From Escherichia coli (lineage in GTDB: Bacteria > Pseudomonadota > Gammaproteobacteria > Enterobacterales > Enterobacteriaceae), in the NCBI RefSeq assembly GCF_050320075.1, contig NZ_CP190018.1: DNA of 64,000 nucleotides; one strand, written 5' to 3'. This document shows, in pieces, positions 1-14,478 of this stretch. Below the pieces are notes generated by a model. It saw nothing but the letters and a program-made list of their open reading frames with translations. It had not been told where the DNA came from and ran no database searches. Positions within the stretch are counted from its first letter, which is position 1; every line of letters begins with the position of its first letter. The position numbers and the translations under genes were made by a program.

Positions 1-575
1 GAATTGATTTTAGAACTCGCAGGATTCGCGCTATTACTGGCCTTGTGTGATGTTGTATTGTTCCCTTCGCCCGCTCCAGAATCTCCCCAGGTGGAGAAGA
101 CTAAAAAAGTCTTCTCTGTCAGCAACTTAAACAGTTACCTATTTAATTTGCTTAGGAGTTCTACCATTGTGATCCGCCCTTAGTAACTGTCACGTTAAGT
201 TACACGGTGAGATGACAGTATAACCTAACGTTGGCGGCAGTTGCACCTCTCACACCGCGATAGCACAACGTGAAGATAAAGCCCATCCTGGCATTGTAAT
301 GTCATCGACAGACTGAACACACGCATTTAAGCCCGATGTGCGGCCTTGTGGCTGCGTAAACAGGTTTATGGTGATATTGGTCCTTGCAAACCATATGCAA
401 GCTCTATCAGCGTTTCAGCCACGCTCCCAACGGGTACACGGTTATCCTGATAAGGTGTGATCTTTCTGACAATCTGATGAAGTCGCTACGCTCCCGCTTG
501 TTGCTGTATCACCAACGGGGCTTTATGGTTTCTATTGTCTATAATAATCTCACAATTCCCCTGCATGAGGTTGAT

Positions 576-782
576 ATGACTGTTAGCTACAAGATTACTT
601 ATGAGCATAGAGACGGTGATCAAATTAGAATGGAAGAGGTTTTATTCCATTCAGAGCATGAACCAACAAAAGATGAAATTCATGATGCAGTAAGAAAAGA
701 TACTGTGAGATTTAATTCTCCATCTAATGGAGTAACGGCTGTTTCAGGGTTTAAAGTGATTTCGGTTGTCCCTGTTCCATGA
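576..782 (+). CDS. Hypothetical small protein (68 aa)
   Basis: ATG at 576 is preceded by GAGG at 567-570. The longer track ORF from 384 starts in compositionally different sequence with no SD. No motif recognised. Confidence 0.4.
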   Translation: MTVSYKITYEHRDGDQIRMEEVLFHSEHEPTKDEIHDAVRKDTVRFNSPSNGVTAVSGFKVISVVPVP

Positions 783-793
783 ATGGTTATAGA

Positions 794-810
794 AGGGGCT
801 GGAAGCCCCT
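794..810. terminator. Hairpin between convergent genes (AGGGGC-tggaa-GCCCCT)
   Basis: Perfect 6 bp stem lying between the stop at 782 and the stop at 816. There is no strong T-run, so it is weak as an intrinsic terminator. Confidence 0.35.
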
Positions 811-815
811 AATTA

Positions 816-1136
816 TTACTTCTTAATATCGCCAGTGCATTGATATTCGATAGTCACAAGTGTTTGCATACAACCAGATGAAGAAGGTTGTGAACATTGA
901 GAAGTGAATCCACCAAAAGGCTCGGCTCCTGAATATCCCCAAGCGGCACAACGCGCTTTGGCTGCATTCATGCCTTGTTGTGGATCTACAACAGGGCTTT
1001 CAAACATACCGTAAGAATAACTCATCCTAACTGTGCCGTCTGATTTGCTTCCACCAGTTGGAACGAGTTGTTTTTTTGTTGCACATCCAGAAATAATCAA
1101 TGTTGAAGCAAGTAACAGCATTAAACTTTTGCGCAT
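816..1136 (-). CDS. Lipoprotein, possibly YecR-like
   Basis: Signal peptide plus lipobox LIISGC near the N-terminus. Four further Cys in the mature part. The GGSKSDGTV / WGY / FGG pattern resembles my recollection of the YecR family. Confidence 0.75.
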   Translation of the reverse strand: MRKSLMLLLASTLIISGCATKKQLVPTGGSKSDGTVRMSYSYGMFESPVVDPQQGMNAAKARCAAWGYSGAEPFGGFTSQCSQPSSSGCMQTLVTIEYQCTGDIKK

Positions 1137-1280
1137 GTAAATAATCCCAAGAGATAATGGTTATGTATTGATTTAAAGCGTTTTTAGATTAATGCATTAA
1201 CTTAGCAAAATTAAGTCTTTTCTGATTGTTTGCAGAGTAAAAATGAGTTGCTTTCGAAATTATTTCGGATGTTTATTGTA

Positions 1281-1448
1281 TTACGGTTTTTCAAACCGTC
1301 TAACTATTGTCGCTATTGAATGGGCAATAATAGCAAGAGGATTCATTTCGTCATTGGAGGCAACAAAAAGTCGGTAACTAATAGCCACAACGAATGCAGC
1401 AATAACGAGAAAGCGGATAGTGCTAAGATGTTTTGAAGATAAATGCAT
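1281..1448 (-). CDS. Small hydrophobic protein (55 aa, MHLSSKHLSTIRFLVIAAFVVAISYRLF...), candidate membrane peptide
   Basis: Below the track cutoff; translated by hand. SD AGGGGG sits 4 nt upstream of the ATG and can pair with CCCCCT in the 5' UTR. One predicted TM segment. Confidence 0.35.
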   Translation of the reverse strand: MHLSSKHLSTIRFLVIAAFVVAISYRLFVASNDEMNPLAIIAHSIATIVRRFEKP

Positions 1449-1524
1449 AACGCCCCCTAAATGAATGTGAGGGGGATTAAATCATGCAAATTTGTTATGT
1501 GCAATACTGGTAATTTATCCTAAT

Positions 1525-1571
1525 AGTCTACTATTCACCTCAATCTACGTCAACCAATATTTGATGTAGAT
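1525..1571 (-). promoter_or_regulatory. Sigma70-like promoter (TTGACG-17-TAGACT on the minus strand) overlapped by a 29 bp palindrome
   Basis: Minus-strand -35 is at 1548-1553 and -10 at 1525-1530. ATCTACGTCAA-N7-TTGATGTAGAT spans 1543-1571 with one mismatch per 11 bp arm. Confidence 0.4.
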
Positions 1572-1788
1572 TTAATTTTCTTTTAAAAACAATATGTTGC
1601 AATTTGTTGGATTTTTGGGTTAGGTTGTTTTTTGAACGTTTCCATCAAGTGTAAAGATACGTTTAGCCTTCATAGTGAGTTCAGTTACTGTCTTTTTATC
1701 TGAAATCGGCGCAAACGTGATCATCGCTTAACGAGAAGATCAGCGCCGTCAGGTCCACGCGGCGACAACTCTGAAATATCAGGAGGCA

Positions 1789-2346
1789 TTACGCTTCCTG
1801 CTCTTTCTTGATACGTTGCACCGTCTGTGTGCTGACACTGAAATCTTTTGCTACGCTCCGAATTGATCCACCATTCGCGAGAGCGGCAGCAATTCCTGCT
1901 CGATCAATTGCTTTTCCATTACCACGTTTTGCTATACGTCCAGCGGCCTTAGCTGCGGCGATCCCTTCACGTTGACGCTCAAGCATCATTTCACGTTCCA
2001 TTTGTGCCACTGCTGCAAGCACTGTGAGCATCATATTCCCTGCGGGAGAGTTCTTCCCTGTCTTAAAGTCTTCTTTATGGAAATGCACAGACACGCCGCG
2101 CTCTGTTAATTGCTCAACCGTTGCCAGTAGGTCGGCTGTATTACGGCAAAGTCGATCAATGCTGTGAACATGCAAAACATCACCTTCCCGCACATAGTTC
2201 ATCATTGCCTCAAACTGTGGGCGCTGGGTATTTTTGCCTGACGCTTTATCTTCAAAGACTTTATCAAGAGTTACTCCAGCTAATTGACGGTCTGTGTTTT
2301 GTTGGACAGTCGATACCCTAATGTATCCAATATTAGCCATTTTCAT
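1789..2346 (-). CDS. Serine recombinase (resolvase/invertase family) with C-terminal HTH
   Basis: N-terminal IGYIRVSTxxQ catalytic-serine motif, DRLCR motif and C-terminal HTH (IRSVAKDFSVSTQTVQRI). The second ATG at 2340 has better SD spacing. Confidence 0.9.
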   Translation of the reverse strand: MKMANIGYIRVSTVQQNTDRQLAGVTLDKVFEDKASGKNTQRPQFEAMMNYVREGDVLHVHSIDRLCRNTADLLATVEQLTERGVSVHFHKEDFKTGKNSPAGNMMLTVLAAVAQMEREMMLERQREGIAAAKAAGRIAKRGNGKAIDRAGIAAALANGGSIRSVAKDFSVSTQTVQRIKKEQEA

Positions 2347-2365
2347 TTTCCTTCTGTGTTGATTT

Positions 2366-2472
2366 GTGTGTAGTGATTATTGATCGTGTTGATTAGGTGT
2401 GTAAAGGACTTTTTTCACTACGAAATTCGAAGGTTTTTAGTGTGGTGATTTAGCCTGCTTTATCACTACACG
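2366..2472. promoter_or_regulatory. Recombinase upstream control region with inverted GTGTAGTGAT / ATCACTACAC arms and further CACTAC-like half sites. Possible res or operator site.
   Basis: 10 bp perfect inverted repeat at 2368-2377 and 2462-2471. Related motifs TTCACTAC and TAGTGTGGTGA lie in between. Confidence 0.3.
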
Positions 2473-3260
2473 TCTTGCATGAGAATCATGTAGTTACATT
2501 TTGGTAAAATTAGCAAGCTATTAAATAGTGTGTTTATTTTGAAAAAATAATTTTTTGTTGCATTAAAGGAAACTTGTTCAATAAATGATAGAACGTTTAT
2601 TGAGCAACAATTTTGCAGTGATGCGCTATATGCCGCATTACATAAGGCTTTGCTGATGATAATGTAAAAGTGAAGAAAGCTAACATTGCTCTTTTAAGCT
2701 ACTTTTCATTGAATTTTTAGTATGGAATTACATAGGGATAAACTATGAATATTCTATGATTTACACGAGATATTCTTGCTGTTTAATTCCGGCTTTGGAG
2801 ATCAGGCATTCGCAAGAATACGCTAACGCGTTGCCTGAAAAGCCATTGCACATAATAGAGGTGAGCGTATAGCGAACTATCAATGTGATCATTGCACGAA
2901 TGATAATGAGTGGATATAGATTCTATATATCGTTAGATTGTAGTTTGATAGTTAATGTGTAATGTAGATTGTATGAGCGTATAGCGAATGTTAGTTAGAT
3001 CAACAACAAACTAACCTTTAAATCTCTTTTATCTTCTCATAGATATGGCTATGCGTAGCAACCGAAGGTTAGCCAATCATCTCTATGCAGCCGTAAGGCT
3101 GTTTTGCATGTAATAGTTGTTTGTTGTTGTTAGACAGTTACCAATTTATAGATCAGAGATAGATGTGAGCGTTGAGCGATACACTAATCATAACAACATC
3201 TTCTTACTTTTTAGTTAGTTGTTAGTAGGTTATTGTTATGCGCGCTATTAGCGCATGTAT

Positions 3261-3371
3261 AAAGGTATCATTTTTATCTAAAGGGCTTTAGACATTTTTG
3301 ATACCTTTTTCATCTCTAAAAAAGTGTAATTTTTATCTAAAGGGGCTTTAGACATTTTTTACACCTTTTTC
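3261..3371. repeat. Two adjacent near-palindromes of about 48 bp, arranged as a 59 bp direct repeat. Each is centred on TCTAAAG-GG(G)-CTTTAGA.
   Basis: Palindrome cores at 3277-3292 and 3336-3352. Outer arms are AAAGGTATC/GATACCTTT and AAAGTGTAA/TTACACCTTT. Extra TCTAAAG half sites occur near 3411 and 3488. Confidence 0.7.
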
Positions 3372-3515
3372 TGTGCAAGACACTTACCAGTGTGCACAAT
3401 ACTTATGCTTTTCTAAAGCCGGGAATTTTTAAGTTTGATTGATCAATTGTTAACTTTAAAAGTTACTTTTAACAATCACTTAGACGATCTAAAGCCGCAA
3501 TTAACATAATATAAG

Positions 3516-3545
3516 TTGACATGCAAGCACTTTTTACCGTATAGT
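3516..3545 (+). promoter_or_regulatory. Near-consensus sigma70 promoter (TTGACA-18-TATAGT)
   Basis: Hexamers read directly at 3516-3521 and 3540-3545. AT-rich sequence lies upstream. Confidence 0.55.
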
Positions 3546-3551
3546 GCGGGT

Positions 3552-3605
3552 TTCCTACCTACCCAGGAAATGAGTTCCTACCTACCCAGGAAATGAGTTC
3601 CTACA
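3552..3605 (+). repeat. Tandem 23 bp repeat, about 2.3 copies, each unit a hairpin or operator (TTCCT-N8-AGGAA)
   Basis: TTCCTACCTACCCAGGAAATGAG at 3552-3574 is repeated exactly at 3575-3597, with a partial third copy at 3598-3605. The repeat starts at the predicted +1 of the 3516 promoter. Confidence 0.9.
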
Positions 3606-4556
3606 ATACTATAATTAAACTACAATTAAACTATCTTTTATAAATTCTTTTATCTTTTAAAGAATAATTATAGGGATACCCGTTAGGGAGTCTTCGACTA
3701 TCCCTTAATCTATTGGCATTCGCCAGAACCTTGCACAAGTTAGACTGATGCTTGTCATAACAGATAGTTTTTGTTTTTTGTTAGTAGTTAGCTGATCTAT
3801 GTTCGCTTTCCGCTCACAACGAATATGTAATCTACTATGTGCAAATAGCCTACGGCTTGCGTATGGCTAATAGTCTTGCGCTGTGCGCAGAACGATAATT
3901 AACTAACTACCATCTAACGATTGAAATTTACTTGTGCAATAACCTGAGCATAAGCGAATGGTTGTTAGTGTCTATGCGCTGTGCGCTTCAATAGTTCCAT
4001 TGATGAGGCTTACGCCAATCTAACGATCATCAATCTATTTAAGAGAAAATCTATTGTGCAATACTCTGACGAGTGCAATAACCTTGTGTGCTACGCGTTA
4101 GCGATGTTAGCACATAGACACAGACAACAACCAACAACAAACAAAAAAGAAAGAATGGTTTTAGTAGTTGAAGGTTAAATAAGTTTCTACCGCTTAAATC
4201 AAGCCGTAGGCGAGCTAAACGTATATAAGGTAGGGAAACACTTAGCGGTAATAGATTAGCTCGTTATAGAGCTTCTGAGGAGCTTTACAGGTATTTTATA
4301 AGATGTCTGAAATCAGAGTTTATCTATCCACCATCTTTCCATCATCTGATAAATCAAAAATAAGCCCCTTAAATAAGCCTCTGACGAGATAAACAACCTC
4401 TACATAAGGGAATGTATTGTTTTTATCAAAACCCCCGTCAGAGTGCGATTGAGAGCGTTTTAGACAACAGGGAAGAATTGTACCAGAGTAGGCAGCACAA
4501 AAAGCTAAGAAAAATTATAAGAAATTGAAAATGATCAAGTTTTTTATAAAAGAGGG

Positions 4557-4585
4557 TTGACAAAGCCGCCGTTATGTAGTATTGT
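4557..4585 (+). promoter_or_regulatory. Sigma70 promoter of the early operon (TTGACA-17-TATTGT) with an A/T-rich UP-like region
   Basis: Hexamers at 4557-4562 and 4580-4585. The first gene with a strong SD follows about 110 nt later. Confidence 0.6.
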
Positions 4586-4701
4586 AAGTAGGGAGGGGAG
4601 AAACATCTCTCTCCATCTAAATAATCAAATCACAGAACACTGCACTTTGAGCCGTCAGGCTGCAAGGTGTGTTTTTCTTTTATCTAAATAAGGAGTTTTT
4701 T

Positions 4702-4884
4702 ATGAAATGGTATACACCGGAACACGTCGTAGAGGCATTTAAAAAAGGTGAGCTAACACGACATCAAGTAAGGATGAACAGGAACACAGCGCGGCGCTGT
4801 GGTTATCCAGAGCGTGAAAAATGCTTTGACGATGCACTAAAAATTATTGATGAACTGCGTAAGGCAGAAGCAGAGAAAGAATAA
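4702..4884 (+). CDS. Hypothetical protein (60 aa)
   Basis: ATG at 4702 is preceded by AAGGAG. The track ORF start at 4669 is an upstream alternative codon without an SD. Confidence 0.6.
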   Translation: MKWYTPEHVVEAFKKGELTRHQVRMNRNTARRCGYPEREKCFDDALKIIDELRKAEAEKE

Positions 4885-4907
4885 TAACAGGAGAAGGAGA
4901 AAACCAA

Positions 4908-5084
4908 ATGAATATTAATTTTGATTCTGCAACTTATAACGCGTTGTTAAATCGTGCAAAGGCAGAAGGGAAATCAATTCCAAAACTTGTTAATGAATTA
5001 CTAATTACAGTCCTTACAAAGGAGGAACTAAATGAACCAAAACACCAAAACAATTGCCGAAGCAAAAGCGCAATGCCTCAATAA
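4908..5084 (+). CDS. Ribbon-helix-helix (CopG/Arc-like) DNA-binding protein (58 aa)
   Basis: Hand-translated: MNINFDSATYNALLNRAKAEGKSIPKLVNELL..., a beta-strand/helix/helix pattern. AGGAGAAGGAG lies upstream. The 3' end overlaps the next gene. Confidence 0.5.
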   Translation: MNINFDSATYNALLNRAKAEGKSIPKLVNELLITVLTKEELNEPKHQNNCRSKSAMPQ

Positions 5085-5697
5085 GAAAGATAGTAAACAA
5101 ACATATGTAGTAGTTGAACAATGGCTGAAGATGTTTAAAAAGTGGTTCTCACCGTCAGGTAAGGAATACACCGCGACACTTCCAGCCGTTGAAATCTACA
5201 GTTACGTAGCTGGGTTCAATGAACAAGGGCAAGAATGTTACGCCAATCAAAAAACATTAGCTAATATTGGAATGGTTAGTGATCGTCAGGTGCGTAATAT
5301 TATAAATATGTTTATTGATATGGGTGTTCTTTCTGTAGAGGCACGGGACGGGCAAACATCACTCTATAAAGCATTACCCTTTACAGATGCACACATCACA
5401 CCACCGGAAGACGTAAAAACCTCTGTAAACGTAGAACAGCCTGCACCTGAAACACAGGAACCGTTAGAAGCGACACACTCTATTGAGCAGGAAACACAGG
5501 CAGAAATCACGGAACAATCTGATCTTTTTACATGGCTTATTTCCATAGACAGCCAAAAGCCTATGCAAGAAGAAACAGAAAATTTTATAAAACGTGCACT
5601 GACCTCGAAGAGGATAATTCTTGAAGATGATGCTTTTAATGCACTGATGATAGCCCTGAGAAAAGAAAGTGAAATCTATGACTCAATACCATTTTAA
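5032..5697 (+). CDS. Winged-helix protein resembling RepA_N/DnaD-type replication initiators, with an acidic C-terminal half
   Basis: Strong SD AAGGAGG. The segment LPAVEIYSYVAGF...ECYANQKTLANIGMVSDRQVRNIINMFIDMGVLSVEARDGQTSLY fits the initiator wHTH pattern as I recall it. Confidence 0.7.
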   Translation: MNQNTKTIAEAKAQCLNKKDSKQTYVVVEQWLKMFKKWFSPSGKEYTATLPAVEIYSYVAGFNEQGQECYANQKTLANIGMVSDRQVRNIINMFIDMGVLSVEARDGQTSLYKALPFTDAHITPPEDVKTSVNVEQPAPETQEPLEATHSIEQETQAEITEQSDLFTWLISIDSQKPMQEETENFIKRALTSKRIILEDDAFNALMIALRKESEIYDSIPF

Positions 5698-5709
5698 GGA
5701 GAATAAAAA

Positions 5710-5967
5710 ATGAAATACAACCTGACATTAAACAAACGAACATTCGAAATTACAGAAAGCGGCTACACACTGGCAAAACAGCTTGCTGATAGCAATTATG
5801 AGCTACCCGCGATTATCAGCTTTCAGGAGTTACCTCATAGTAAAGAACACACACAGCACTGGTTAAATCACCTGAGCCATTTTGGGGTAATTAAGTATGA
5901 GGCTGTGAATAGTCAGACGTTCCGTTTGCTTGAGATAAGCCCTTTCGAATTGTGGGTGGCGCTGTGA
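5710..5967 (+). CDS. Hypothetical protein (85 aa), possibly winged-helix
   Basis: ORF with SD, lying in the operon. Confidence 0.65.
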   Translation: MKYNLTLNKRTFEITESGYTLAKQLADSNYELPAIISFQELPHSKEHTQHWLNHLSHFGVIKYEAVNSQTFRLLEISPFELWVAL

Positions 5968-6170
5968 CCATATTCGATAGCGAATTTTCACAAGAAACCT
6001 TTCTGCAATATTTACGGGAAAGAACGGGAATGATTCTGTTTGATTCTGAGTTTTCCGGTGTGGTAGGTGAGCAATTTTTATATGCTCTTCTCGATAGCCT
6101 AAGTAAACAAGGATTATTGCAGTATACCAAAACTCATATGAAAGCATTCAGAATCGACTCTGTAGCTTAA
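5964..6170 (+). CDS. Hypothetical protein (about 68 aa) with an internal tandem (I/L)FDSEFS repeat
   Basis: GTG at 5964 overlaps the upstream stop as GTGA, suggesting translational coupling. The track ORF begins at 5952. Confidence 0.55.
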   Translation: MTIFDSEFSQETFLQYLRERTGMILFDSEFSGVVGEQFLYALLDSLSKQGLLQYTKTHMKAFRIDSVA

Positions 6171-6206
6171 AACAAACAACTATCAAACATCTTGAAGGGT
6201 GAAACA

Positions 6207-6347
6207 ATGGAAAGCTTAATATTTTTCTTAGTATTTATGATCGCTTCCTTTTTTAACACTGCAACAAGAAAAACAAAACGAAGGGGAAGCAATGAGCAAG
6301 AAAAAAGGCAAGAAAAACGTAATAACAACTATTGGCGAAGCATGTGA
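6207..6347 (+). CDS. Possible small membrane peptide (46 aa, MESLIFFLVFMIASFF... with a basic tail)
   Basis: Hand-translated. Weak SD AAGGG. Overlaps the next gene out of frame. Confidence 0.2.
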   Translation: MESLIFFLVFMIASFFNTATRKTKRRGSNEQEKRQEKRNNNYWRSM

Positions 6348-6672
6348 TCAGTATGCGTTAAACAATCCTCGCAAATATAATTATGAGCATGATGCACAAC
6401 CAGGCGAGGAATTGATCTTTATACTTGAAGAACCAAGCCCAGAATTAACAGACGAAGAATTATCACTCATTCAAAGTATGGACGGTGTTTACTTTAATCC
6501 GCGCCCACGCAAAACAACGGTTATAGATTCCAGTCTTCTGAAAAGATGGCAGTGTTTGGGTTTTCAGGATATGCACCACTTTAGGGGGTATATGGCTCTT
6601 AACAGTCTGCAATATGCAGGGGTGAGAGAAACCGAATTACTTCTGCTTGATAAAATAAAAATCGACGATTAA
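6292..6672 (+). CDS. Hypothetical protein (126 aa), basic N-terminus
   Basis: ORF with SD (AAGGGGA). No motif recognised. Confidence 0.7.
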   Translation: MSKKKGKKNVITTIGEACDQYALNNPRKYNYEHDAQPGEELIFILEEPSPELTDEELSLIQSMDGVYFNPRPRKTTVIDSSLLKRWQCLGFQDMHHFRGYMALNSLQYAGVRETELLLLDKIKIDD

Positions 6673-6713
6673 CAGCGTTTGCTGAATATAACCCTTAACA
6701 AAAGGAAAATAAA

Positions 6714-6935
6714 ATGATTAACAAAGCAATTTTAGAGACAACCACTTTTCACGATCTTAAACTTCTTTCTGAATGCTTCATAAGCCTGATTGAACGTGCA
6801 CAGGAAGAAAACGATCTCGGTTTACTCGATGATATTATAGACAACATTGCAACTTATAAAATCCCGCTCACTATTGCTATGAAGAAAGCTCGTGAAGCAC
6901 AACAACAATTAGAACAATCAGAGGAAGTGGCATAA
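6714..6935 (+). CDS. Hypothetical acidic helical protein (73 aa)
   Basis: ORF with SD. The stop overlaps the next start as TAATG. Confidence 0.7.
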   Translation: MINKAILETTTFHDLKLLSECFISLIERAQEENDLGLLDDIIDNIATYKIPLTIAMKKAREAQQQLEQSEEVA

Positions 6936-7243
6936 TGAGCGAAGTACACAACGTAACTATTGAAATGATGGATCTGGTTATTGATTTACAGAAAGCAGTA
7001 AACGCGGCTCTGACTTTTCCAAGCGAGCTAACCATCACACAGGCGGTTATTAATCTGGAATCGACGCGGGAAGCACTGCAACTACTTATTGCAGCGTGCG
7101 AAGAGAGCGAAGGTGCACAGATTGAAGCTGATGACCTTTCTAATCTGATCATCGTCATTCATGACACCACTGAAATCATGAAAGAAGCGGTAGCAGATCT
7201 GCAACCCCTCATTAATGAATTAATCGATAAGGCTAACAACTAA
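6935..7243 (+). CDS. Hypothetical strongly acidic helical protein (102 aa)
   Basis: By my count about 19 D/E against 4 K/R. TAATG overlaps at both ends. Confidence 0.7.
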   Translation: MSEVHNVTIEMMDLVIDLQKAVNAALTFPSELTITQAVINLESTREALQLLIAACEESEGAQIEADDLSNLIIVIHDTTEIMKEAVADLQPLINELIDKANN

Positions 7244-7452
7244 TGTCAAAAACTAAACGTGTGCGCCTTCTGGCGCTCACAGAAGAAGGGAAAGCGGGTA
7301 ATTGTTTCACAGTAGGTAAAGTGTATACCGGCTTACTCGACACTTACACCCGCCTGATGCACGTAACCGATGATAACGGTAACGATCAAACAATCGTTTT
7401 AGATGGTAATTGCGTATTTGGTGAGTGGGAACTGACAACCGAAAAAAGTTGA
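7243..7452 (+). CDS. Hypothetical protein (69 aa)
   Basis: Translationally coupled ORF and the last gene of the early operon. Confidence 0.7.
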   Translation: MSKTKRVRLLALTEEGKAGNCFTVGKVYTGLLDTYTRLMHVTDDNGNDQTIVLDGNCVFGEWELTTEKS

Positions 7453-7471
7453 AAATAATTGCATTTACCTA

Positions 7472-7500
7472 TTGACTTTTACTAACAGAAATGTTAGAAT
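7472..7500 (+). promoter_or_regulatory. Sigma70-like promoter (TTGACT-17-TAGAAT)
   Basis: Hexamers at 7472-7477 and 7495-7500, 20 nt after the early-operon stop. Confidence 0.5.
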
Positions 7501-7506
7501 AATAAA

Positions 7507-7749
7507 TGTTGGGTTTGGAATCGAAAATAGGTGTTAGCTGGCGTTAATCCTTCTCCCGATTCTAATCCTACACGAAAGCGGGGTAGACCTCAAGGGGTCG
7601 CGCCCTATCTAACCTATCCCGCTTTCCCTTTACAGTGATTTTTTAGAAATTGTTTCCCTCGTTAATAGTTTCATTTTATTTTCCTTATTGCTTTATCAAA
7701 ATTGTGTCTTAAGAATGCAGGGGCTACGGATTTGGCCCCTCATCTTTTT
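7507..7749 (+). ncRNA. Candidate structured leader or ncRNA 1
   Basis: No ORF longer than 20 codons. A 13 bp stem (7574-7586 with 7614-7626) encloses the AGGG-gtcgcg-CCCT hairpin. Ends at the terminator-like hairpin at 7719-7749. Confidence 0.3.
7719..7749 (+). terminator. Intrinsic terminator-like hairpin (AGGGGC...GCCCCT followed by T5)
   Basis: 6 bp GC stem at 7719-7724 and 7735-7740, with a T-run at 7745-7749. Confidence 0.5.
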
Positions 7750-7869
7750 AACCAACTGCGAAGCATGAAACACTTTCTAAAAACACTGTTTACAGTGTCT
7801 ATAAACCCCGTATAAACAAATAACGGTGTATATCTGTTTCTTGACAACAGTTTTCTACTAAGCTTAAAG

Positions 7870-8290
7870 CTGAATATGTTTTTGTTTGTTGGTGTTTATT
7901 AAGGTGCCAATCTTAGAACGCGAAAGCGTGGATGATCCCCGAAATCATCTCGGCACCGCCTCCTATTAAAATGAGAATCCAAAAGGTTTGAAAGTTAATA
8001 GGTGATTCCTGAAAGTCTGATCGATGCATCCACATTGTGAAAGACAGCGATTAGCCGTCGCACGAATAACAGGTTTATAGATTCCTCTCCAAAGGGGGCG
8101 ACCTCCTAAGCGCCTACTCCCTGTAAGCCTGTTATTCACCCCTCAAGGGTATATAACAATAAGCAATCTTATTCTTATATGTCCTCCTCTTTAAGTTCAT
8201 ATAAACTGCGATTTAGTAACACTCTATAACATCCTTCAAATGTTGTATTCATAAAGCCGGAAGCTTTCCCCTTCCGGTTTTATTTTTATC
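7870..8290 (+). ncRNA. Candidate long structured RNA 2 (about 420 nt). The 5' end is uncertain.
   Basis: A possible promoter is TTGACA at 7841-7846 with a weak -10 TTAAAG. A three-way junction is formed by GGTGCC 7903-7908 with GGCACC 7952-7957, the GNRA hairpin ACGC-GAAA-GCGT at 7918-7929, and GATGAT/ATCATC at 7931-7949. An 8 bp stem pairs 7962-7969 with 7995-8002, and a 10 bp stem pairs 8064-8073 with 8128-8137. A strong terminator sits at 8253-8290. No ORF longer than 20 codons. Confidence 0.4.
8253..8290 (+). terminator. Intrinsic terminator (CCGGAAG-ctttccc-CTTCCGG followed by a T-rich tail)
   Basis: 7 bp GC-rich stem extended by A-U/G-U pairs, then TTTTATTTTTAT. It lies about 40 nt before the first head-module gene. 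Confidence 0.7.
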
Positions 8291-8330
8291 AGCACTAAAC
8301 AAGACTGTTAGGAATAAAGGTAAAGCAATA

Positions 8331-8546
8331 ATGCAAAATCTCATTCTAAAGAATGGTAACGAAGAATTGGTTATCACTGATGAAACATTCAATGCTACGG
8401 CTTATATGCTGGGGATCACTCCCACAGAATTGAAAAAACATTGTGATAAGCTTTTTAAGTCTGCTGATGAACAGAAACCTACTATGCAGGATCTGATTAA
8501 AGCAAAAGCAGAACAAATCAAACAATCCAAAAAAGGAAACTATTAA
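8331..8546 (+). CDS. Hypothetical protein (71 aa), first gene of the head module
   Basis: ORF with SD. No motif recognised. Confidence 0.7.
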   Translation: MQNLILKNGNEELVITDETFNATAYMLGITPTELKKHCDKLFKSADEQKPTMQDLIKAKAEQIKQSKKGNY

Positions 8547-8548
8547 TT

Positions 8549-8920
8549 ATGGCTATTATTAATATGAGCGATCTGTTTCCAGTTCGCAAATCATTTACCG
8601 ATATCGTTTCATATGCAACTGATGAGTTCGGTTGTGTGCAATCTTTTACCGTTGATCTGGCGGTTGATGTTGAATGCGGCGATCTGATTACCAGTGACGG
8701 CGCTGAATATGTAAGCGGCGGCGATGTTCTTGTAGTTGTGTCTGATGCGGTATCCGCTGGCGACGCTAAAACCGTTAACGTGCTGCGTAGCAATGCCGGA
8801 CTGGTTTGCATCAAGTCCGATGCTCTGAATGTTGAAGGCGCTGTGAAAGAAGCTGCTATTGCTGCCCTGGCTGCAAAAGGTTTCCAGATGGCTGGTTTTA
8901 ACACTGTATTCACATCTTAA
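8549..8920 (+). CDS. Head decoration / capsid-cement-like protein (gpD / DUF2190-like)
   Basis: 123 aa, Gly/Ala/Val-rich beta-type protein immediately upstream of the capsid gene. The size, position and G..V......G.....V pattern are typical of decoration proteins. The assignment rests on pattern, not on an alignment. Confidence 0.6.
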   Translation: MAIINMSDLFPVRKSFTDIVSYATDEFGCVQSFTVDLAVDVECGDLITSDGAEYVSGGDVLVVVSDAVSAGDAKTVNVLRSNAGLVCIKSDALNVEGAVKEAAIAALAAKGFQMAGFNTVFTS

Positions 8921-8938
8921 TATAAAGGAATAAAAATA

Positions 8939-9967
8939 ATGATTATTGGTAATGAATCCGTCGATCTGGCTCCGCTGTTTAGTCTGCACGACTCTCGCAA
9001 CTTCCTGTTAACTTCTCTCGACTTTACTGATCCGGTAGGTGTGAGTTCTCATAAAGTGGCTGTTAGCCAACTGGTGGAAACTAACGAATCTCTGTTCAAC
9101 AAAGAAACCTCTCGTTTCTCTTCTGAACATAACGTGACTAAACGTGAACAGGGTAAAGAATTTTTAGTAGAGATCCCCTACTTCCTGCGTGAAGATATGA
9201 TTAAGCCGCAAGACGTGCAAGGCAAACGTAAACCAGGCGCTACCGTTGAAGAAACTCTGACAGATATCTACGCGGAATATGTTGCTAAGCACCACATTGC
9301 TTTCCAGCGTACTAAAGAAAGCGTGCTGGCTGCTTCCCTGTTCTCTGGTCGCACTTACACCCCTAAAACTGATGATGTGCTGATCCAGTGGGGCGATCTG
9401 TTTAGTGTTGTTCCGATGACTGCAACCATCGACGCATCAAGCACCACGCCTTCTATGGTGTTCCAGCAATTCGATCAGATGCATACAGACGTTATTACTA
9501 AAGCACAAAGCCAGGCGGCTGCTGTAGAACGTATCGTTGTATTCTGTAAACCTGCTGCTTTCAACGCTATCCGTTACAGTGCTGGCATGGTTAACGCGTT
9601 CCAGTATGCAAGCCCTACCGATGACGCAAACATCGTTTATAGCGTGCGCTCCCTGCTGCCAGGTGTGACTACCTTCACTATTCCTGGGACTAACATCGAT
9701 ATCGTTAAAGTTACTGATCCGCTGCTGCTGGCTCATATGACTTCTGATGCGGTTGCTGTTCCGAAGTTCGCTAAAGGCTCTAACGTCTATCAGAACATTT
9801 TCAGCGCTCCTTCTTCAACGTTCGACCTGCTGAATTCTGGCGCGGCTGAATATTACAGCTATGCGTTTAGCCCAGCACGTAACGACGCTGTAAACGTAGT
9901 TACTGAGAATAGCCAGATGGTTGTAAACCACGGCGTAGGCTTCACTGTACAGATCACAGTAGCGTAA
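8939..9967 (+). CDS. Major capsid protein, lambda gpE-like family
   Basis: 342 aa, close to the size I recall for gpE (about 341 aa). The IKPQDVQGKRKPG segment resembles the conserved P.D.QG.R..G region of the capsid E family. It follows a decoration-like gene as in lambda D-E. Confidence 0.75.
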   Translation: MIIGNESVDLAPLFSLHDSRNFLLTSLDFTDPVGVSSHKVAVSQLVETNESLFNKETSRFSSEHNVTKREQGKEFLVEIPYFLREDMIKPQDVQGKRKPGATVEETLTDIYAEYVAKHHIAFQRTKESVLAASLFSGRTYTPKTDDVLIQWGDLFSVVPMTATIDASSTTPSMVFQQFDQMHTDVITKAQSQAAAVERIVVFCKPAAFNAIRYSAGMVNAFQYASPTDDANIVYSVRSLLPGVTTFTIPGTNIDIVKVTDPLLLAHMTSDAVAVPKFAKGSNVYQNIFSAPSSTFDLLNSGAAEYYSYAFSPARNDAVNVVTENSQMVVNHGVGFTVQITVA

Positions 9968-10017
9968 TAAAGCGTTAATAGTCGTTTCCTGTGCGACTGG
10001 AAATAAAACAGGCAATA

Positions 10018-10081
10018 AGGGCAAAAGGGATTATTAAACCTGTAGCGCAAATACAGTAAACAATCTCTTTTGCCCTTTTTT
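10018..10081 (+). terminator. Long-stem terminator-like structure after the capsid gene
   Basis: AGGGCAAAAG at 10018-10027 pairs with CTTTTGCCCT at 10067-10076, followed by T5. An inner hairpin lies at 10040-10056. Confidence 0.45.
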
Positions 10082-10120
10082 CGTTTATACCGTCTATTAA
10101 AATATTGTGAGAGAAAAATC

Positions 10121-10312
10121 ATGAGCGAACAAAACAACAATCCAGTTGAGATCCTGAAAGCTGTTTCCACCTTACCGGAAGATATTCTGAATATCTCTCA
10201 AGTGTGTAAGTTTTTAGGGATCTCTAATACTGCTGTACGTCAAAGAATCTTCACTACTGGCTGCTCAGCTATGGAAGCAGTGCAATACTACGTAACAAAA
10301 CAAAACAAATAA
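10121..10312 (+). CDS. Small HTH DNA-binding protein (63 aa). Could be an excisionase/AlpA-like or small-terminase-like recognition protein.
   Basis: The ISQVCKFLGISNTAVRQRI helix-turn-helix. The track ORF start at 10070 lies inside the terminator, so the ATG at 10121 is preferred. Confidence 0.6.
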   Translation: MSEQNNNPVEILKAVSTLPEDILNISQVCKFLGISNTAVRQRIFTTGCSAMEAVQYYVTKQNK

Positions 10313-10330
10313 AAGGTAAAGGAAAATATT

Positions 10331-12172
10331 ATGGATTTAAACATCTCAACCTTAACAAACAAGGTTGTATTTAAAGTTGATTTTGCATCATTACAGAAAG
10401 CAAGGGACGCAGGGAAGAAATTTCAGAAAGAAATGGAAAACCTAACCAATCCAACATTGAAAGGGAAGAAGGCTAAACGAGCTATAGACGAGGCTCATGA
10501 TCTGGTAAAGGCTCGTAAAGCTGCACAGGCTAAAACTGATGCCAAAGCGTCAGACAAGCAAGCTCAAACCGATAAGAAGAACGCTGATAAGGTGGCAAAG
10601 GCAGAAGCTAAAGCGAAGGCTAAAGCCGCTATAGCTGCCGATAAACAGATCCGCGCTAAAGCGACAATAGCAGAGAAAGCAGAGATTAAGCGCCAGCAAG
10701 CTTTCAGACAGCTTGAAGGGATTAAGAAAGGGCGTATGGGCGACGGTATGGACTCCGCCCAATACTACAAAACGTTGCAATACATCAAAGCACAAACGGC
10801 AGCGTATGAGAAAGGCGCTATTAGTCAGGCTAAGATGAATCACCTGATCCGTGATCGTATCACGTTAGAACGCCGTGCGGCTGCTGTAAAAGCTCGCCAG
10901 GTGGCGGCTGATGGCGGTAAATATCCACATATGGCTAAACAGCTTAAAGGCGGTCATATAGGCGGTGGTGTAGGTGCAATGGTGGGCGGTGCCGCTCTCA
11001 CTGCTGCCACTCTCGGCGGTGCTGCGATATTCAATACCGTAACCGATCAGGCAAGCAAGATCACAGACACTAACCGCAAGGCAAAGGCTGTCAACGTAAA
11101 CACTAACGCCCTGTTAGCACTTAATCAGTACGGCTTAGAACACGGTGTCGATAGTTCCGTAGACCAACGTCAAGACAACCTTAAAGACGTTCAAGAGCGT
11201 TTAGGTGAATCCGTAGGGAATACCAAATGGGACGCTAAGAAAGGTCGCTGGGCTGGCGGTAATGGTGCCGTCGATAACATCCTTAATAAATATGGTTGGA
11301 GTCCTGAACAGATTAAAGGTTTCCAGACTGATCCATTAGGTTTCCTGGGCGCTGTAGTGAAAGAAGGAGAACGCCGTGGACTCTCTGATCAGGAGCAGGG
11401 TCACATCCTTGAAGACCTTGGAAATGATTTACAATATTTCCGTGGTGCTTTCAGTCGTAACGGTGAAGAGCTAAATAAAACCATCGTTAAGATGCAAAAA
11501 GCCAATGCCACCTATGCGCAAGCGGATCTTGACGCTGCTGAACGTCTGCAAGCTGTACAGGCTAATATGAATATGGCCTGGGAAGGTAGTAAGAAAGCTA
11601 TCATGACGGGATTCGGTGAAGAGTTCGACGCTCAGGCTGGTGAAGAGTGGGCGCAAATGTTGAAAGATCTCAATCCTCTGTTTAAAGAACTTGGAAGCTC
11701 AACGGCTGAAATGATGAGCGCCTTTGCTGGTGCTGTATCGTGGCTTACTGCTGCATACCAGAATATAAATCCAGAGAACAAACATGAAAACCTTGATTCG
11801 TCCGGTATGTATTATAAGGATTCGTTTGTAGGCGGCATGGTTGATTGGGGTCGTAGTGCTTTAGGCTTATCGCCTATCCCTGGCACGGAAGACAAGCCAA
11901 CGACTGGCGGAACTGCAATTCAGAACTATTCAAGCCCGTCCGATAACGTGCAATCCCTGAAAGAGAACGTTAGCCGTGATCTGAACACTACCCCATCTAT
12001 GACGTATGCGCCAAGCATTGTCGTAAACGTGCCAGAAAGTAAGGTTGATGTGAATATCGCTCCTGATGGTAGTCAGCTTGGATCATACCTCGATTACAAA
12101 GTGGGAAGTATCCAACAAGATTTTGAACGTAGTTTCACGTTGGCGGCTCTGTCTGGGCAAGCACCAAGTTAA
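10331..12172 (+). CDS. Large structural protein, tape-measure-like (Lys/Ala coiled coil plus glycine-zipper hydrophobic segment)
   Basis: 613 aa. The N-terminal KAEAKAKAKAA-type repeats and GGHIGGGVGAMVGGAALTAATLGGAAIF are typical of tape-measure or DNA-pilot proteins. Confidence 0.6.
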   Translation: MDLNISTLTNKVVFKVDFASLQKARDAGKKFQKEMENLTNPTLKGKKAKRAIDEAHDLVKARKAAQAKTDAKASDKQAQTDKKNADKVAKAEAKAKAKAAIAADKQIRAKATIAEKAEIKRQQAFRQLEGIKKGRMGDGMDSAQYYKTLQYIKAQTAAYEKGAISQAKMNHLIRDRITLERRAAAVKARQVAADGGKYPHMAKQLKGGHIGGGVGAMVGGAALTAATLGGAAIFNTVTDQASKITDTNRKAKAVNVNTNALLALNQYGLEHGVDSSVDQRQDNLKDVQERLGESVGNTKWDAKKGRWAGGNGAVDNILNKYGWSPEQIKGFQTDPLGFLGAVVKEGERRGLSDQEQGHILEDLGNDLQYFRGAFSRNGEELNKTIVKMQKANATYAQADLDAAERLQAVQANMNMAWEGSKKAIMTGFGEEFDAQAGEEWAQMLKDLNPLFKELGSSTAEMMSAFAGAVSWLTAAYQNINPENKHENLDSSGMYYKDSFVGGMVDWGRSALGLSPIPGTEDKPTTGGTAIQNYSSPSDNVQSLKENVSRDLNTTPSMTYAPSIVVNVPESKVDVNIAPDGSQLGSYLDYKVGSIQQDFERSFTLAALSGQAPS

Positions 12173-12230
12173 TGATAAAGAGAATGTTTAATCACCATTT
12201 AAAACACTCTTATAAGGAATTAAGCATATA

Positions 12231-12257
12231 AGAGGCTCCCATTACAAGGAAGCCTCT
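12231..12257. terminator. Hairpin between convergent genes (AGAGGCT...AGCCTCT)
   Basis: 7 bp stem followed by TTATT. It sits between the stop at 12172 and the integrase stop at 12280. Confidence 0.45.
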
Positions 12258-12279
12258 TTATTGCGCCTATGGCGTTGTT

Positions 12280-13455
12280 TTAAGCCTTAAAATCAATATT
12301 TAATTCATATCTTACTAATTCTACATATTCAGCTAATTCTGGAATGCTTGCCCCTTGTGAGTAGGTGCGAAAGGCTTCTGTTTTAGCTCTCTGCTCTGTA
12401 TGTCCGGTAATGGCACCGATCCGCTGTTCAGGCACTCCGGCACGATCAAGACAAGTGATAAACATCCCGCGCAAGCTGTGAAAGCATTGTCTATTTGTAG
12501 CGATTGGCAAGACGCTACGACGTAAACGTGAGAACGCTTGAGAATAGAACGGGCCTTTCTTACCGTCGATTCTTTTTACTTTGTTCGAGTGAGGGAACAA
12601 ATATTCACCATAATTATGATTTAAATATTCATCGACAATAATCGATAGTCTCGAATGTATCGGAACGTGCCTGATCCCTGCTTTAGTCTTACTTTTGCTG
12701 ATATAAAAACAGCGTATTCCTTCCACAGTTACAACCTCTGACTTTTTCAGACTTGCCAGTTCGTCTAATCTGCATCCTGAAAACAAGCCCATTAAAATAA
12801 TATTTCTGATCTCCGGCTCCGCTGCATCAAGTAGCTTTTGCATTTGTTCAGGTGTAAACGGTTGATAACTCTCGATTGTGCGACGTGCTTCGAGATTATG
12901 ACCGTGAAAAGGGTTACTGTCTGGTATTCCGTCATAACGGCGTTTAGCAAATTCATAGAGCGATCCTAAGCATGTAAGCCAGTTTTGACGAGATTGATCG
13001 GCTGCTCCTCGTTGCTTCTGGTCATCTAAGAATACTGTTACAAGCCGTCTGCCTATTTTCTCAATATGAATATCATCTTTCTGAATGCTTTGTAAAAATA
13101 GCTCAACGGCCCTTGCTGATTTCTGTAGTGTTGAGTATGAACGACGCTCTCTGTAGCATTCGGCGTATTCGTCACGTATTAAGCATAGGGAAGGCGATGC
13201 ATAACCGCGTTTTACGGCTCTTTGCGTGTTTTTATTGGCCCTTGCCTCTGAATGTAAGGATTCAATAGCTTGTTGTAACCTCCTTTCGGGGTTATCAGGA
13301 TTATGTTTCCGCTTTAGTTCCTCCCATTCTAATAATAGATGGTTTCTGAATCTTCTCGCCTCATTCAGATCTCGTGTAGATGTGCTTTTTCTCCACAACT
13401 TGTAAGGGTAAAGATGACGTAAGTATTTAGGAACAAAAATCGGTGATGCTGCCAA
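12280..13455 (-). CDS. int: Tyrosine recombinase/integrase, 5'-truncated. The first about 5 codons of the open frame are IS1 end sequence.
   Basis: The C-terminal catalytic motifs HSLRG, GH and RTY are present. The N-terminal arm motif (VPKYL...KSTSTRDLNEARRF) begins abruptly. The ORF start (TTG at 13453-13455) lies inside the IS1 IRL, which begins at 13442. Confidence 0.85.
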   Translation of the reverse strand: MAASPIFVPKYLRHLYPYKLWRKSTSTRDLNEARRFRNHLLLEWEELKRKHNPDNPERRLQQAIESLHSEARANKNTQRAVKRGYASPSLCLIRDEYAECYRERRSYSTLQKSARAVELFLQSIQKDDIHIEKIGRRLVTVFLDDQKQRGAADQSRQNWLTCLGSLYEFAKRRYDGIPDSNPFHGHNLEARRTIESYQPFTPEQMQKLLDAAEPEIRNIILMGLFSGCRLDELASLKKSEVVTVEGIRCFYISKSKTKAGIRHVPIHSRLSIIVDEYLNHNYGEYLFPHSNKVKRIDGKKGPFYSQAFSRLRRSVLPIATNRQCFHSLRGMFITCLDRAGVPEQRIGAITGHTEQRAKTEAFRTYSQGASIPELAEYVELVRYELNIDFKA

Positions 13456-13496
13456 CTTACTGATTTAGTGTATGATGGTGTTTTTGAGGTGCTCCA

Positions 13497-13772
13497 GTGG
13501 CTTCTGTTTCTATCAGCTGTCCCTCCTGTTCAGCTACTGACGGGGTGGTGCGTAACGGCAAAAGCACCGCCGGACATCAGCGCTATCTCTGCTCTCACTG
13601 CCGTAAAACATGGCAACTGCAGTTCACTTACACCGCTTCTCAACCCGGTACGCACCAGAAAATCATTGATATGGCCATGAATGGCGTTGGATGCCGGGCA
13701 ACCGCCCGCATTATGGGCGTTGGCCTCAACACGATTTTCCGCCATTTAAAAAACTCAGGCCGCAGTCGGTAA
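13497..13772 (+). CDS. insA: IS1 InsA
   Basis: 91 aa, [40 protein letters not shown]..., recognised. Confidence 0.95.
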
Positions 13773-14194
13773 CCTCGCGCATACAGCCGGGCAGTGACGT
13801 CATCGTCTGCGCGGAAATGGACGAACAGTGGGGATACGTCGGGGCTAAATCGCGCCAGCGCTGGCTGTTTTACGCGTATGACAGGCTCCGGAAGACGGTT
13901 GTTGCGCACGTATTCGGTGAACGCACTATGGCGACGCTGGGGCGTCTTATGAGCCTGCTGTCACCCTTTGACGTGGTGATATGGATGACGGATGGCTGGC
14001 CGCTGTATGAATCCCGCCTGAAGGGAAAGCTGCACGTAATCAGCAAGCGATATACGCAGCGAATTGAGCGGCATAACCTGAATCTGAGGCAGCACCTGGC
14101 ACGGCTGGGACGGAAGTCGCTGTCGTTCTCAAAATCGGTGGAGCTGCATGACAAAGTCATCGGGCATTATCTGAACATAAAACACTATCAATAA
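13691..14194 (+). CDS. insB: IS1 InsB' frame, expressed as the InsAB' transposase by -1 frameshifting
   Basis: 167 aa frame overlapping insA. The slippery TTAAAAAAC motif lies at 13746-13754. Confidence 0.9.
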
Positions 14195-14478
14195 GTTGGA
14201 GTCATTACCCTTTGGCTATGAATAATTCTGATTTGACGAATCCAGAGGACTTATAGATCACTGTCTCCGGTTTAATAACTTGAATATAATCTAATTCTAA
14301 TATTTTAAACGCCTAATGATTTTTCAACACGGGTGTTATTCTGCTTACGCAAAAATTTTATTTTTAATTATATTTCATTATTATTTCATCAATGTATTCT
14401 TTGGATTTTGCTTATAATAATAATGGAAGGGATGATTATAAATGAATGCGTTATTGCATTTACACTCAGGATGAATAT

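Follow-up and report, generated by a model that had tools for sequence, protein, structure and literature searches.

Compact enterobacterial elements with phi92-like capsid and tail-core genes: probable satellites of virulent myoviruses

Phage satellites, in the general sense of mobile elements without a full virion gene set, differ in how much of the particle they encode. Phage-inducible chromosomal islands of the capsid-forming kind (cfPICIs) are integrative elements of ~10-15 kb, common in Enterobacteriaceae, that carry their own major capsid protein (MCP) of the HK97 fold together with portal, protease, head-tail adaptor/connector, terminase subunits and HNH, and rely on a helper phage for the remaining virion parts. 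The cfPICI model of SatelliteFinder requires terL, a portal and adaptors and forbids tail genes (PMC10085698). Phage-inducible chromosomal islands (PICIs) are built as int-alpA/stl-primase/replicase with terS, ppi, rpp or cpm. P4 encodes a primase-helicase, alpha, but no capsid or tail protein, and resizes the P2 capsid by means of Sid and Psu. The PICI-like elements (PLEs), which occur only in Vibrio and are satellites, in V. cholerae, of the virulent myovirus ICP1, have a large serine integrase, RepA_N and capR/nixI/lidI/tcaP-type genes; they remodel the helper coat protein through the scaffold TcaP and encode no MCP, cement protein or tail tape measure protein (TMP). The subject of this report is a 13.4-kb island at positions 61-13441 of a 64,000-nucleotide stretch of Escherichia coli DNA (contig NZ_CP190018.1, assembly GCF_050320075.1; hereafter the window). 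Its gene content points to a helper-dependent phage satellite, probably one that exploits virulent myoviruses resembling phi92 and phAPEC8 (Stephanstirmvirinae). A first-pass annotation of the sequence had proposed a capsid-encoding satellite or phage-plasmid hybrid that borrows functions from a helper; the conserved, compact family and the plasmid-like relatives described here support that proposal, in which helper dependence is a prediction from gene content.

None of the four described satellite types fits the island, as the first-pass annotation had held: against the defining features of each, it fails. It resembles a cfPICI in being integrative, in its size and in having its own HK97-fold MCP (PF03864, with profile matches to solved MCPs), presumably with a helper supplying the other virion parts. 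However, MCP and cement are its only head proteins. The family to which it belongs also breaks the rule against tail genes, with a TMP in all members and a Dit-like tail-tube initiator in many; unlike cfPICIs, it has no AlpA/primase module, appears tied to virulent 150-kb myoviruses and includes plasmids. Only the integrase is shared with the PICI layout. Like P4-like elements, members measure ~11-14 kb, use tRNA sites, occur integrated or as plasmids, and have a leader with a putative regulatory RNA and a cargo hotspot, whereas profile searches of the island detected no P4 core gene (psu, delta, sid, alpA, epsilon, alpha). Like PLEs, the island is chromosomal, appears to depend on a large virulent myovirus whose MCP is of the gpE type, has a putative replication initiator and non-coding origin region of its own, and would be expected to form small capsids; unlike them, it has a tyrosine integrase and no RepA_N, and resides in E. 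coli. Nor do other categories apply. The portal, terminase, tail and lysis modules and the 35-50 kb size of a temperate prophage occur in no relative examined, and the plasmid-like relatives, which might suggest a phage-plasmid, have the same incomplete virion set. What the elements do show is intact att repeats in relatives and three to four virion genes. Full-text literature, with subscription-only papers outside reach, yielded no Stephanstirmvirinae or phAPEC8 satellite, no TMP-encoding satellite and no description of the family, and for the island at glyU offered only the generic label 'glyU-associated island'. This family of 12-14 kb elements is apparently undescribed.

The borders of the island are evident by comparison with other genomes. 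Forty-five further complete E. coli genomes contain the block 61-13441 at ≥99% identity, with megablast matches that always begin at 61. In E. coli strain H3 (NZ_CP010167.1), a 13.56-kb copy lies between the tRNA-Gly gene glyU and the ETT2 type III secretion island. On both sides of it stands the 3ʹ-terminal sequence of glyU, TCGATTCCCTTCGCCCGCTCCA, as a direct repeat of 22 bp without mismatch (positions 14997 and 28556 of the H3 locus L002, 13,559 bp apart). The second copy, attR, is directly outside the start of a full-length, 407-aa integrase. The element integrates at the glyU 3ʹ end via its tyrosine integrase. In the window, an 18-nt copy of the glyU 3ʹ end (61-78, + strand), recognized by its match to the H3 repeat and by the megablast edges, forms the attL core and doubles as the junction with a P4-like satellite inserted in tandem at glyU, whose end occupies 1-60. 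The left border originally drawn at position 1 therefore moves to about 61, while the right end at 13441 stands. There, a complete IS1 of 768 bp (13442-14209), whose ends were located, and a partial ETT2 deletion have removed attR and ~20 N-terminal codons of the integrase. The call of a tyrosine integrase was correct as to identity (DUF6538-type, PF00589 E 1e-12; 12280-13441, − strand, with the open reading frame (ORF) call running to 13455), but the gene is 5ʹ-truncated. Because of these losses the window copy is probably disabled for excision; all its other ORFs are 98-100% identical to those of the att-intact copy. The IS1 fuses the truncated integrase directly to a ygeK-like LuxR gene and accompanies loss of the structural half of the ETT2 type III secretion system, which is retained in H3.

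The island belongs to a widespread family. Its MCP has homologues, 40-97% identical, in Escherichia, Klebsiella, Citrobacter, Enterobacter, Cronobacter, Kluyvera, Buttiauxella, Scandinavium, Dryocola, Pantoea and Serratia, and the same gene set and order, at 40-80% protein identity, recurs in at least 13 loci from about ten enterobacterial genera. The left part of the shared layout comprises a small recombinase (serine or tyrosine), an ORF-free gap, small ORFs with a winged helix-turn-helix (wHTH) protein and an ORF of the 126-aa type. The right part comprises a leader, genes for a ~70-aa protein, a ~120-aa cement protein, an MCP of ~343 aa, a ~64-aa protein, a TMP of 608-638 aa and, in many relatives, a Dit-like initiator of 218-237 aa, and an inward-facing integrase; the cassette of the window island has no Dit-like gene. 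Direct repeats bound elements of 12,194-14,279 bp at no fewer than five att sites: glyU, the LysR gene ygfI (52-bp repeat), another tRNA gene (41-44-bp repeats) and two more. This compact layout with intact repeats is found in E. coli, Klebsiella, Citrobacter, Buttiauxella, Kluyvera, Scandinavium, Pantoea and metagenomes, and a distance of 10 kb around it contains no homologue of a portal, terminase, sheath or tube protein. The first-pass annotation had agreed to yield if intact homologues turned out to be ordinary 35-50 kb prophages; the relatives instead measure 12.2-14.3 kb, with intact repeats and without those modules. In E. coli, the cement and MCP module is present in 396 of 5426 complete genomes (~7%), always on the chromosome and in up to three copies.

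Exchange within the family is evident in an element at glyU of the avian pathogenic E. coli (APEC) O1:K1:H7 strain E16002, L047 (NZ_CP126944.1 1066231-1080134; 13,882 bp, perfect repeats). Its initiator-like protein is identical to that of the island, its TMP 96% identical and its integrase 99.5% identical. A tyrosine recombinase replaces the serine one, and the head cassette, with proteins of 65, 127 and 343 aa, is of another deep type whose MCP has no BLAST similarity to that of the window and no Pfam match. Between elements TMPs are 25-31% identical and MCPs 53-80%. This swap, together with TMPs far more divergent than MCPs, indicates that head and tail cassettes move as modules.

The virion genes form a single cassette on the + strand. 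First is a ~70-aa protein with a helix-turn-helix (HTH)-like segment (8331-8546), which opens the head cassette of every member, has the same position in 13 loci and gave no family match in profile searches. It is followed by a 123-aa capsid cement, or decoration, protein of the gpD/phi92 gp123 type (8549-8920), for which structure comparison upheld the cement fold behind the original call of a decoration-like protein; hhalign between island and phage cement proteins, on small alignments, gave no signal. The 342-aa MCP (8939-9967) belongs to the gpE/HK97-fold family, matching PF03864 over its full length (E 2.5e-11), and the family MCP profile matches the solved structure of Phi92_gp124 (E 1e-15). 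The capsid fold had been set in advance as the check on the gpE-like assignment, and it holds. Over its full length this protein is 24-26% identical to Stephanstirmvirinae MCPs. Between MCP and TMP lies a gene for a ~63-aa HTH-like protein (10121-10312); its position, noted from the start, is kept in all members, but its HTH matches are marginal. Comparisons of the ~70-aa and ~64-aa proteins by hhalign with the phage protein upstream of TerL, the chaperone, gp263 and gp274 gave nothing. The cassette ends with a 613-aa TMP (10331-12172), an assignment also suspected at first reading and now anchored by matches to phrog_16051 (E 2e-64) and, by profile, to Phi92_gp134 (E 1.3e-46).

Searches of the island ORFs against Pfam, PHROGs and NCBIfam gave no portal, terminase, protease, tube, sheath, lysis or adaptor/connector match, and AlpA, primase, helicase and TerS matches were likewise not found. 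Profile searches thus agree with the first-pass annotation, which had seen no portal, terminase, protease, tube, lysis, helicase or primase gene. Apart from the 221-aa ORF of the initiator-like wHTH protein, unassigned ORFs reach at most 126 aa, which leaves no space for a portal or terminase gene. Pairwise ratios of nonsynonymous to synonymous substitution (dN/dS) are 0.12-0.15 for the MCP, 0.25 for the cement protein and 0.08-0.22 for the TMP (0.08 against L047). At 0.08-0.25 these ratios mark the island genes as functional, and by this measure the MCP, cement, TMP and small ORFs are under purifying selection.

Among 50,697 phage records, the TMP and the tube initiator of relatives point above all to one group of phages. 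By tblastn, the TMP matched 134 records, mostly of Phapecoctavirus/Justusliebigvirus type (Stephanstirmvirinae, myoviruses of ~145-155 kb), at ~30% identity; the TMP of phage FKP3 is exactly 613 aa. Of the sister elements in E. coli, the commonest has a TMP that matches the same 134-record group, and its Dit-like protein is 58-61% identical to the Stephanstirmvirinae tube initiator (Phi92_gp135, E 2e-78), and those of Citrobacter, Buttiauxella and metagenome elements reach 72-75% identity to that of phage ESCO13. When 29 packaging and structural proteins of ESCO13 were compared with 22 family loci, flanks included, only the MCP, TMP and Dit had homologues by tblastn; TerL, portal, gp274 and the neck proteins found nothing. 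Cryo-electron microscopy of phi92 describes a T=13 head with 775 copies of the MCP gp124 and 260 trimers of the cement protein gp123, and a central baseplate with the TMP gp134 as a trimer and the tube initiator gp135 as a hexamer (PMC13450770). The cement, MCP and TMP of the island and the initiator of its relatives are homologues of exactly gp123, gp124, gp134 and gp135, and the adjacency of cement with MCP and of TMP with initiator is the same in phage and elements. In other respects the two differ: phi92 is a virulent phage of 148 kb, whereas the island is integrative, is 13.5 kb long and lacks at least 25 further genes for structure and packaging, and protein identities are low, the initiator excepted. 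Since these phages are not temperate (no integrase or repressor is listed in the annotated ESCO13 genome), the island is not a decayed Stephanstirmvirinae prophage.

Two further features connect the island with these phages outside the virion cassette. In a comparison with the whole ESCO13 genome, one more island protein, encoded at 7243-7452, found a counterpart in gp190 (43.5% identity, E 1e-13); it also matches phrog_27862. In addition, an 83-nt non-coding element (1703-1785, no strand assigned) is shared with Phapecoctavirus at 77-78% identity, matching unannotated DNA in 64 records, all of them phAPEC8-like; it is the sole match of all non-coding island DNA among the phage records searched. 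It lies at 1129-1209 in ESCO13 (NC_047770.1), within a gene-free region of ~1.5 kb, and at 6685-6765 in phAPEC8 (NC_020079.1); in several other records it is near the record start. No convincing covariation supports an RNA structure, and a packaging, origin or regulatory site are candidate roles.

Some relatives are not integrated. The E. coli contig L043 (13,782 bp) has a 30-nt terminal overlap and is therefore a circle of 13,752 bp, with no integrase and no chromosomal gene; it is 86.6% identical in nucleotide sequence to island 5742-8344, which covers the small-ORF and leader module, and 84.5% identical to part of the ORF-free field. On a 14.1-kb contig from Pantoea, the genes for cement, MCP, TMP and Dit are accompanied by ParA and a small tyrosine recombinase. 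These two relatives strengthen the earlier view that the island contains plasmid-type parts. Several other contigs of ~13.6 kb with family genes, considered as possible circles, proved to be chromosomal fragments; the terminal overlap is present in L043 only. According to a 2025 review, one plasmid satellite is known, that of an inovirus, and satellite-like small plasmids are an open possibility (PMC12282955).

A very distant second family was also observed, consisting of circular E. coli 'non-mobilizable plasmids' of 13.2-13.7 kb (NZ_CP020521.1, here L042, 13,689 bp; CP134895.1; NZ_CP035869.1; CP148565.1). These L042-type plasmids have a cement-like and a Dit-like protein, together with an MCP of 24% identity, a TMP of 706 aa that weakly resembles those of rV5-type phages and a wHTH protein; they share the design of the island family in a different lineage.

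The structural cassette is preceded by a non-coding leader of ~0.9 kb (7453-8330, + strand), which contains a strong sigma-70-like promoter with a near-consensus extended -10 element (7472-7500), two intrinsic terminators with hairpins (7719-7740 and 8251-8283) and, at 7999-8145 on the + strand, a 147-nt structured RNA motif of three helices. The ~880 bp of structured non-coding sequence recognized initially thus resolve into defined parts. A covariance model of the motif, R1, was built from six sequences; it locates 10 copies in as many loci, one of them L047, whose sequence had no part in building the model, and the motif is also present in the circular episome L043. Over seven distinct sequences, pairing extends to 98.4% of cells, with compensatory changes at 10 of 26 pairs, against 31-56% paired in slid-partner controls. 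The motif is not present in several more distant family members, and an Rfam scan of the island gave no match at E ≤ 1. Read-through of the leader may gate the structural cassette. In ESCO13, the structural genes have ordinary strong sigma-70-like promoters, so these phages provide no diagnostic late promoter motif to look for in the island.

Taken together, a conserved and compact family with few virion genes, all related to those of phi92/phAPEC8, most likely represents a satellite of a new kind and not the decayed form of a prophage. With somewhat less assurance than for helper dependence itself, we favor a widespread satellite family of enterobacteria, integrated or plasmid-borne, that makes its own small capsid shell from MCP and cement and, unlike any described satellite, its own tail core from the TMP with or without the initiator; such elements would parasitize large virulent T=13 myoviruses of the phi92/phAPEC8 group, with cassettes swapped as modules and the leader RNA gating the cassette. 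The element is too small and gene-poor for autonomy. In this scheme, helper infection would switch the element on; it would excise, or already be episomal, and then replicate from the ORF-free field, with the small recombinase resolving multimers. Leader read-through would turn on the cassette. The element's own MCP and cement would then form a small shell on the portal, scaffold and protease of the helper, sized for ~13 kb rather than as the helper's T=13 head, and its TMP, with or without initiator, would serve as the core on which helper hub, tube, sheath and baseplate assemble. The helper terminase would package the element, the helper would also supply neck and fibres, and helper lysis would free the particles. 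By our own rough estimate, a T=3 shell scaled from the 148-kb T=13 head (volume ∝ T^1.5, cut by ~20%) would hold about 13 kb (13-16 kb), which is within the range of element sizes. A capacity reduction of ~20% is seen for P4/P2 and for SaPI/80α.

Several observations weigh against this interpretation. Induction, excision, packaging and transfer by a helper are inferred from genomes, and the window copy has neither attR nor an intact integrase. Because identities are 24-26% for the MCP and ~30% for the TMP, co-assembly with the helper portal, scaffold and hub is an assumption. The MCP also matches 123 records of Pseudomonas phages (myoviruses) at similar identity, and sister elements carry a second head-cassette type without a clear phage relative (marginal Aeromonas phage matches). 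The 83-nt element occurs only in family members with the serine recombinase and is missing from many members. No packaging signal or TerS-like protein was identified in the island, and matches in IMG/VR are prophage calls in isolate genomes, none of them particle-derived. Finally, why a satellite should have its own TMP is unexplained; compatibility with small heads, escape from TMP-targeting exclusion or interference with the helper tail are possibilities.

The low identities to known phages could also mean that a satellite of the same type uses a helper outside the known Stephanstirmvirinae, an unsequenced relative such as a myovirus that is temperate or carried on a plasmid and has head and tail genes like those of phi92. 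The second MCP type of the sister elements, with its marginal Aeromonas phage matches, and the weak likeness of the L042-type TMP to rV5-type phages would suit such a helper, which we consider unlikely but worth keeping in view. The tube initiators of relatives are nevertheless up to 72-75% identical to that of ESCO13, the gp190 homologue and the 83-nt element point to Phapecoctavirus specifically, and no closer phage is present in the 50,697 records. Another interpretation, which we regard as distinctly improbable, is that the island is an anti-phage interference island that spreads by other means and is not packaged, its MCP, cement, TMP and initiator acting as dominant-negative decoys that would spoil the assembly of phi92-like heads and tails. 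These are exactly the components that nucleate or size phage heads and tails; moreover, relatives carry defence genes and a superinfection-immunity gene, and the island adjoins a P4-like satellite at a defence-rich locus. The narrow size range of 12.2-14.3 kb across att sites, cargo and plasmid forms, however, is hard to explain without a packaging constraint, and a cement protein that co-evolves with its own MCP speaks for a functional shell, less for a poison. An element could, besides, both interfere with a phage and be transferred as a satellite.

Two other interpretations fare much worse. An MCP and cement protein without a portal could close into a shell, and plasmid forms exist; it is therefore conceivable, though very improbable, that the family consists of small plasmids or integrative elements whose capsid-like shell is non-viral, an encapsulin-like compartment or a self-contained transfer particle that needs no helper. 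An always-linked TMP, often with a tube initiator, makes no sense without a tail, and genes for a tube, sheath, baseplate, terminase or cargo loading are absent. That the island is the deletion remnant of an ordinary prophage or phage-plasmid with few structural genes left is scarcely tenable and already largely refuted. The window copy has indeed lost attR and the 5ʹ end of its integrase to IS1, and phage-type genes stand without a portal or terminase, but the same set and order recur between intact direct repeats in at least 13 loci of about ten genera, dN/dS is 0.08-0.25, homologue searches revealed no larger relative, and the related phages have no annotated integrase.

If the satellite interpretation is true, a family common in E. 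coli and its relatives is invisible to current detectors, and small 'non-mobilisable' plasmids of 13-14 kb can be satellite-like. The elements would constitute the first satellite to encode a TMP and tube initiator, raising the question of why the tail core is replaced; a natural case of an HK97-family MCP lineage specialized for small shells beside a T=13 helper; and a tractable E. coli counterpart of the Vibrio PLE-ICP1 system. Phage-therapy work on APEC, K1 and Klebsiella strains makes wide use of the phi92/phAPEC8 group, and the yield, resistance and gene transfer of these therapy phages would then be affected.

The left part of the island holds the genes and sites that would serve its maintenance. 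A small serine recombinase of the resolvase/invertase type (1789-2346, − strand, 185 aa) matches PF00239 (E 1e-38), as the resolvase-type call had predicted, and phrog_125 (E 2e-62), and its best PHROG is annotated 'DNA invertase'. In sister elements a tyrosine recombinase of ~190-205 aa (FimB-sized) occupies its position. A role in flipping an ORF-free switch is less favored, there being no inversion polymorphism in 713 genomes; given that plasmid-form relatives exist, multimer resolution is a simpler role for the recombinase than inversion. Beside the tyrosine recombinase, some elements encode a ~70-aa protein (L047 11691-11906; L007 2768-2971) that is 32% identical (E 4e-5) to ESCO13 gp106 (46831-47040), a further small protein connecting the family with these phages.

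Adjacent to the recombinase is a conserved ORF-free field of 2.35 kb (2347-4700, no strand), with no ORF longer than 65 aa. It is found in 713 of the 5426 complete E. coli genomes (~13%), always unannotated in RefSeq. Over bases 2801-3200, identity is 94% with the episome L043 and 99.5% with L047. The field contains two tandem copies of a 59-60-nt palindrome-bearing unit (3258-3371), a 23-nt tandem (3552-3597), three copies of TGAGCGTATAGCGAA and promoter-like sites at 3516-3545 and 4557-4585. Repeats are present in 2-4 copies only, and a classical iteron array and convincing DnaA boxes were not found in it; the description as ORF-free was accurate, while 'repeat field' was an overstatement. 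The field probably holds cis-acting sites such as an origin, a resolution site or a packaging site. Copy number of the 59-60-nt and 23-nt units differs among near-identical elements (W, H3 and L047), and O26-type copies are ~55-60 nt shorter at the repeat units in 3258-3597.

Downstream of the field, on the + strand, are a 60-aa protein (4702-4884) and a 58-aa protein resembling a ribbon-helix-helix (RHH) protein (4908-5084), both conserved across family loci. The sole PHROG match of this ORF pair is phrog_36888 (E 3e-4); the RHH assignment is plausible from sequence pattern and conservation, and profile searches did not confirm it. The 221-aa winged-helix initiator-like protein (5032-5697, + strand) matches HTH_36 at E 1e-4, under the Pfam cut-off, and has weak PHROG matches to replication initiator, O-like and DnaD-like families (E 7e-6 to 4e-3). 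It has no RepA_N match and found nothing in the PDB or NCBIfam, and the initial designation as a RepA_N-like initiator is not supported. Six small ORFs follow on the + strand (5710-5967, 5964-6170, 6292-6672, 6714-6935, 6935-7243 and 7243-7452), 81-88% identical to those of the episome L043, with dN/dS of 0.09-0.22. The roughly seven tiny proteins counted earlier correspond to seven conserved ORFs of 60-126 aa in 4702-7452, under purifying selection. The 126-aa protein (6292-6672) has a homologue in every family locus examined; an AlphaFold model of it, for which only near-identical sequences served as input, was unusable (pLDDT 43.6).

Next to attL, a cargo slot holds an 85-aa hypothetical protein (525-782, + strand) and a YecR-family lipoprotein (816-1136, − strand; PF13992 E 1.8e-23). 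This slot varies, and relatives hold other genes, including PD-T7-4 and a type IV restriction enzyme; such variable defence cargo resembles that of known satellites. At the attL side or its equivalent, L051 (406-1041), L010 (1654-2379) and L043 (11042-11329) encode PD-T7-4 (E 5e-95), a type IV methyl-directed restriction enzyme and a superinfection-immunity protein (Imm), respectively. The P4-like neighbour at glyU (L001 1-18000 = NZ_CP123240.1 1066605-1084604) encodes an integrase, an Icd-like protein and a DUF927 primase, as well as three large hypothetical genes of 2.1-2.8 kb that resemble a defence hotspot. Another element of the family, whose MCP shares 77% identity with that of the island, is present on a 9.4-kb contig, L035 (JAEWTL010000083.1), labelled 'MAG: Bacillota bacterium', which is probably a binning contaminant from Escherichia.

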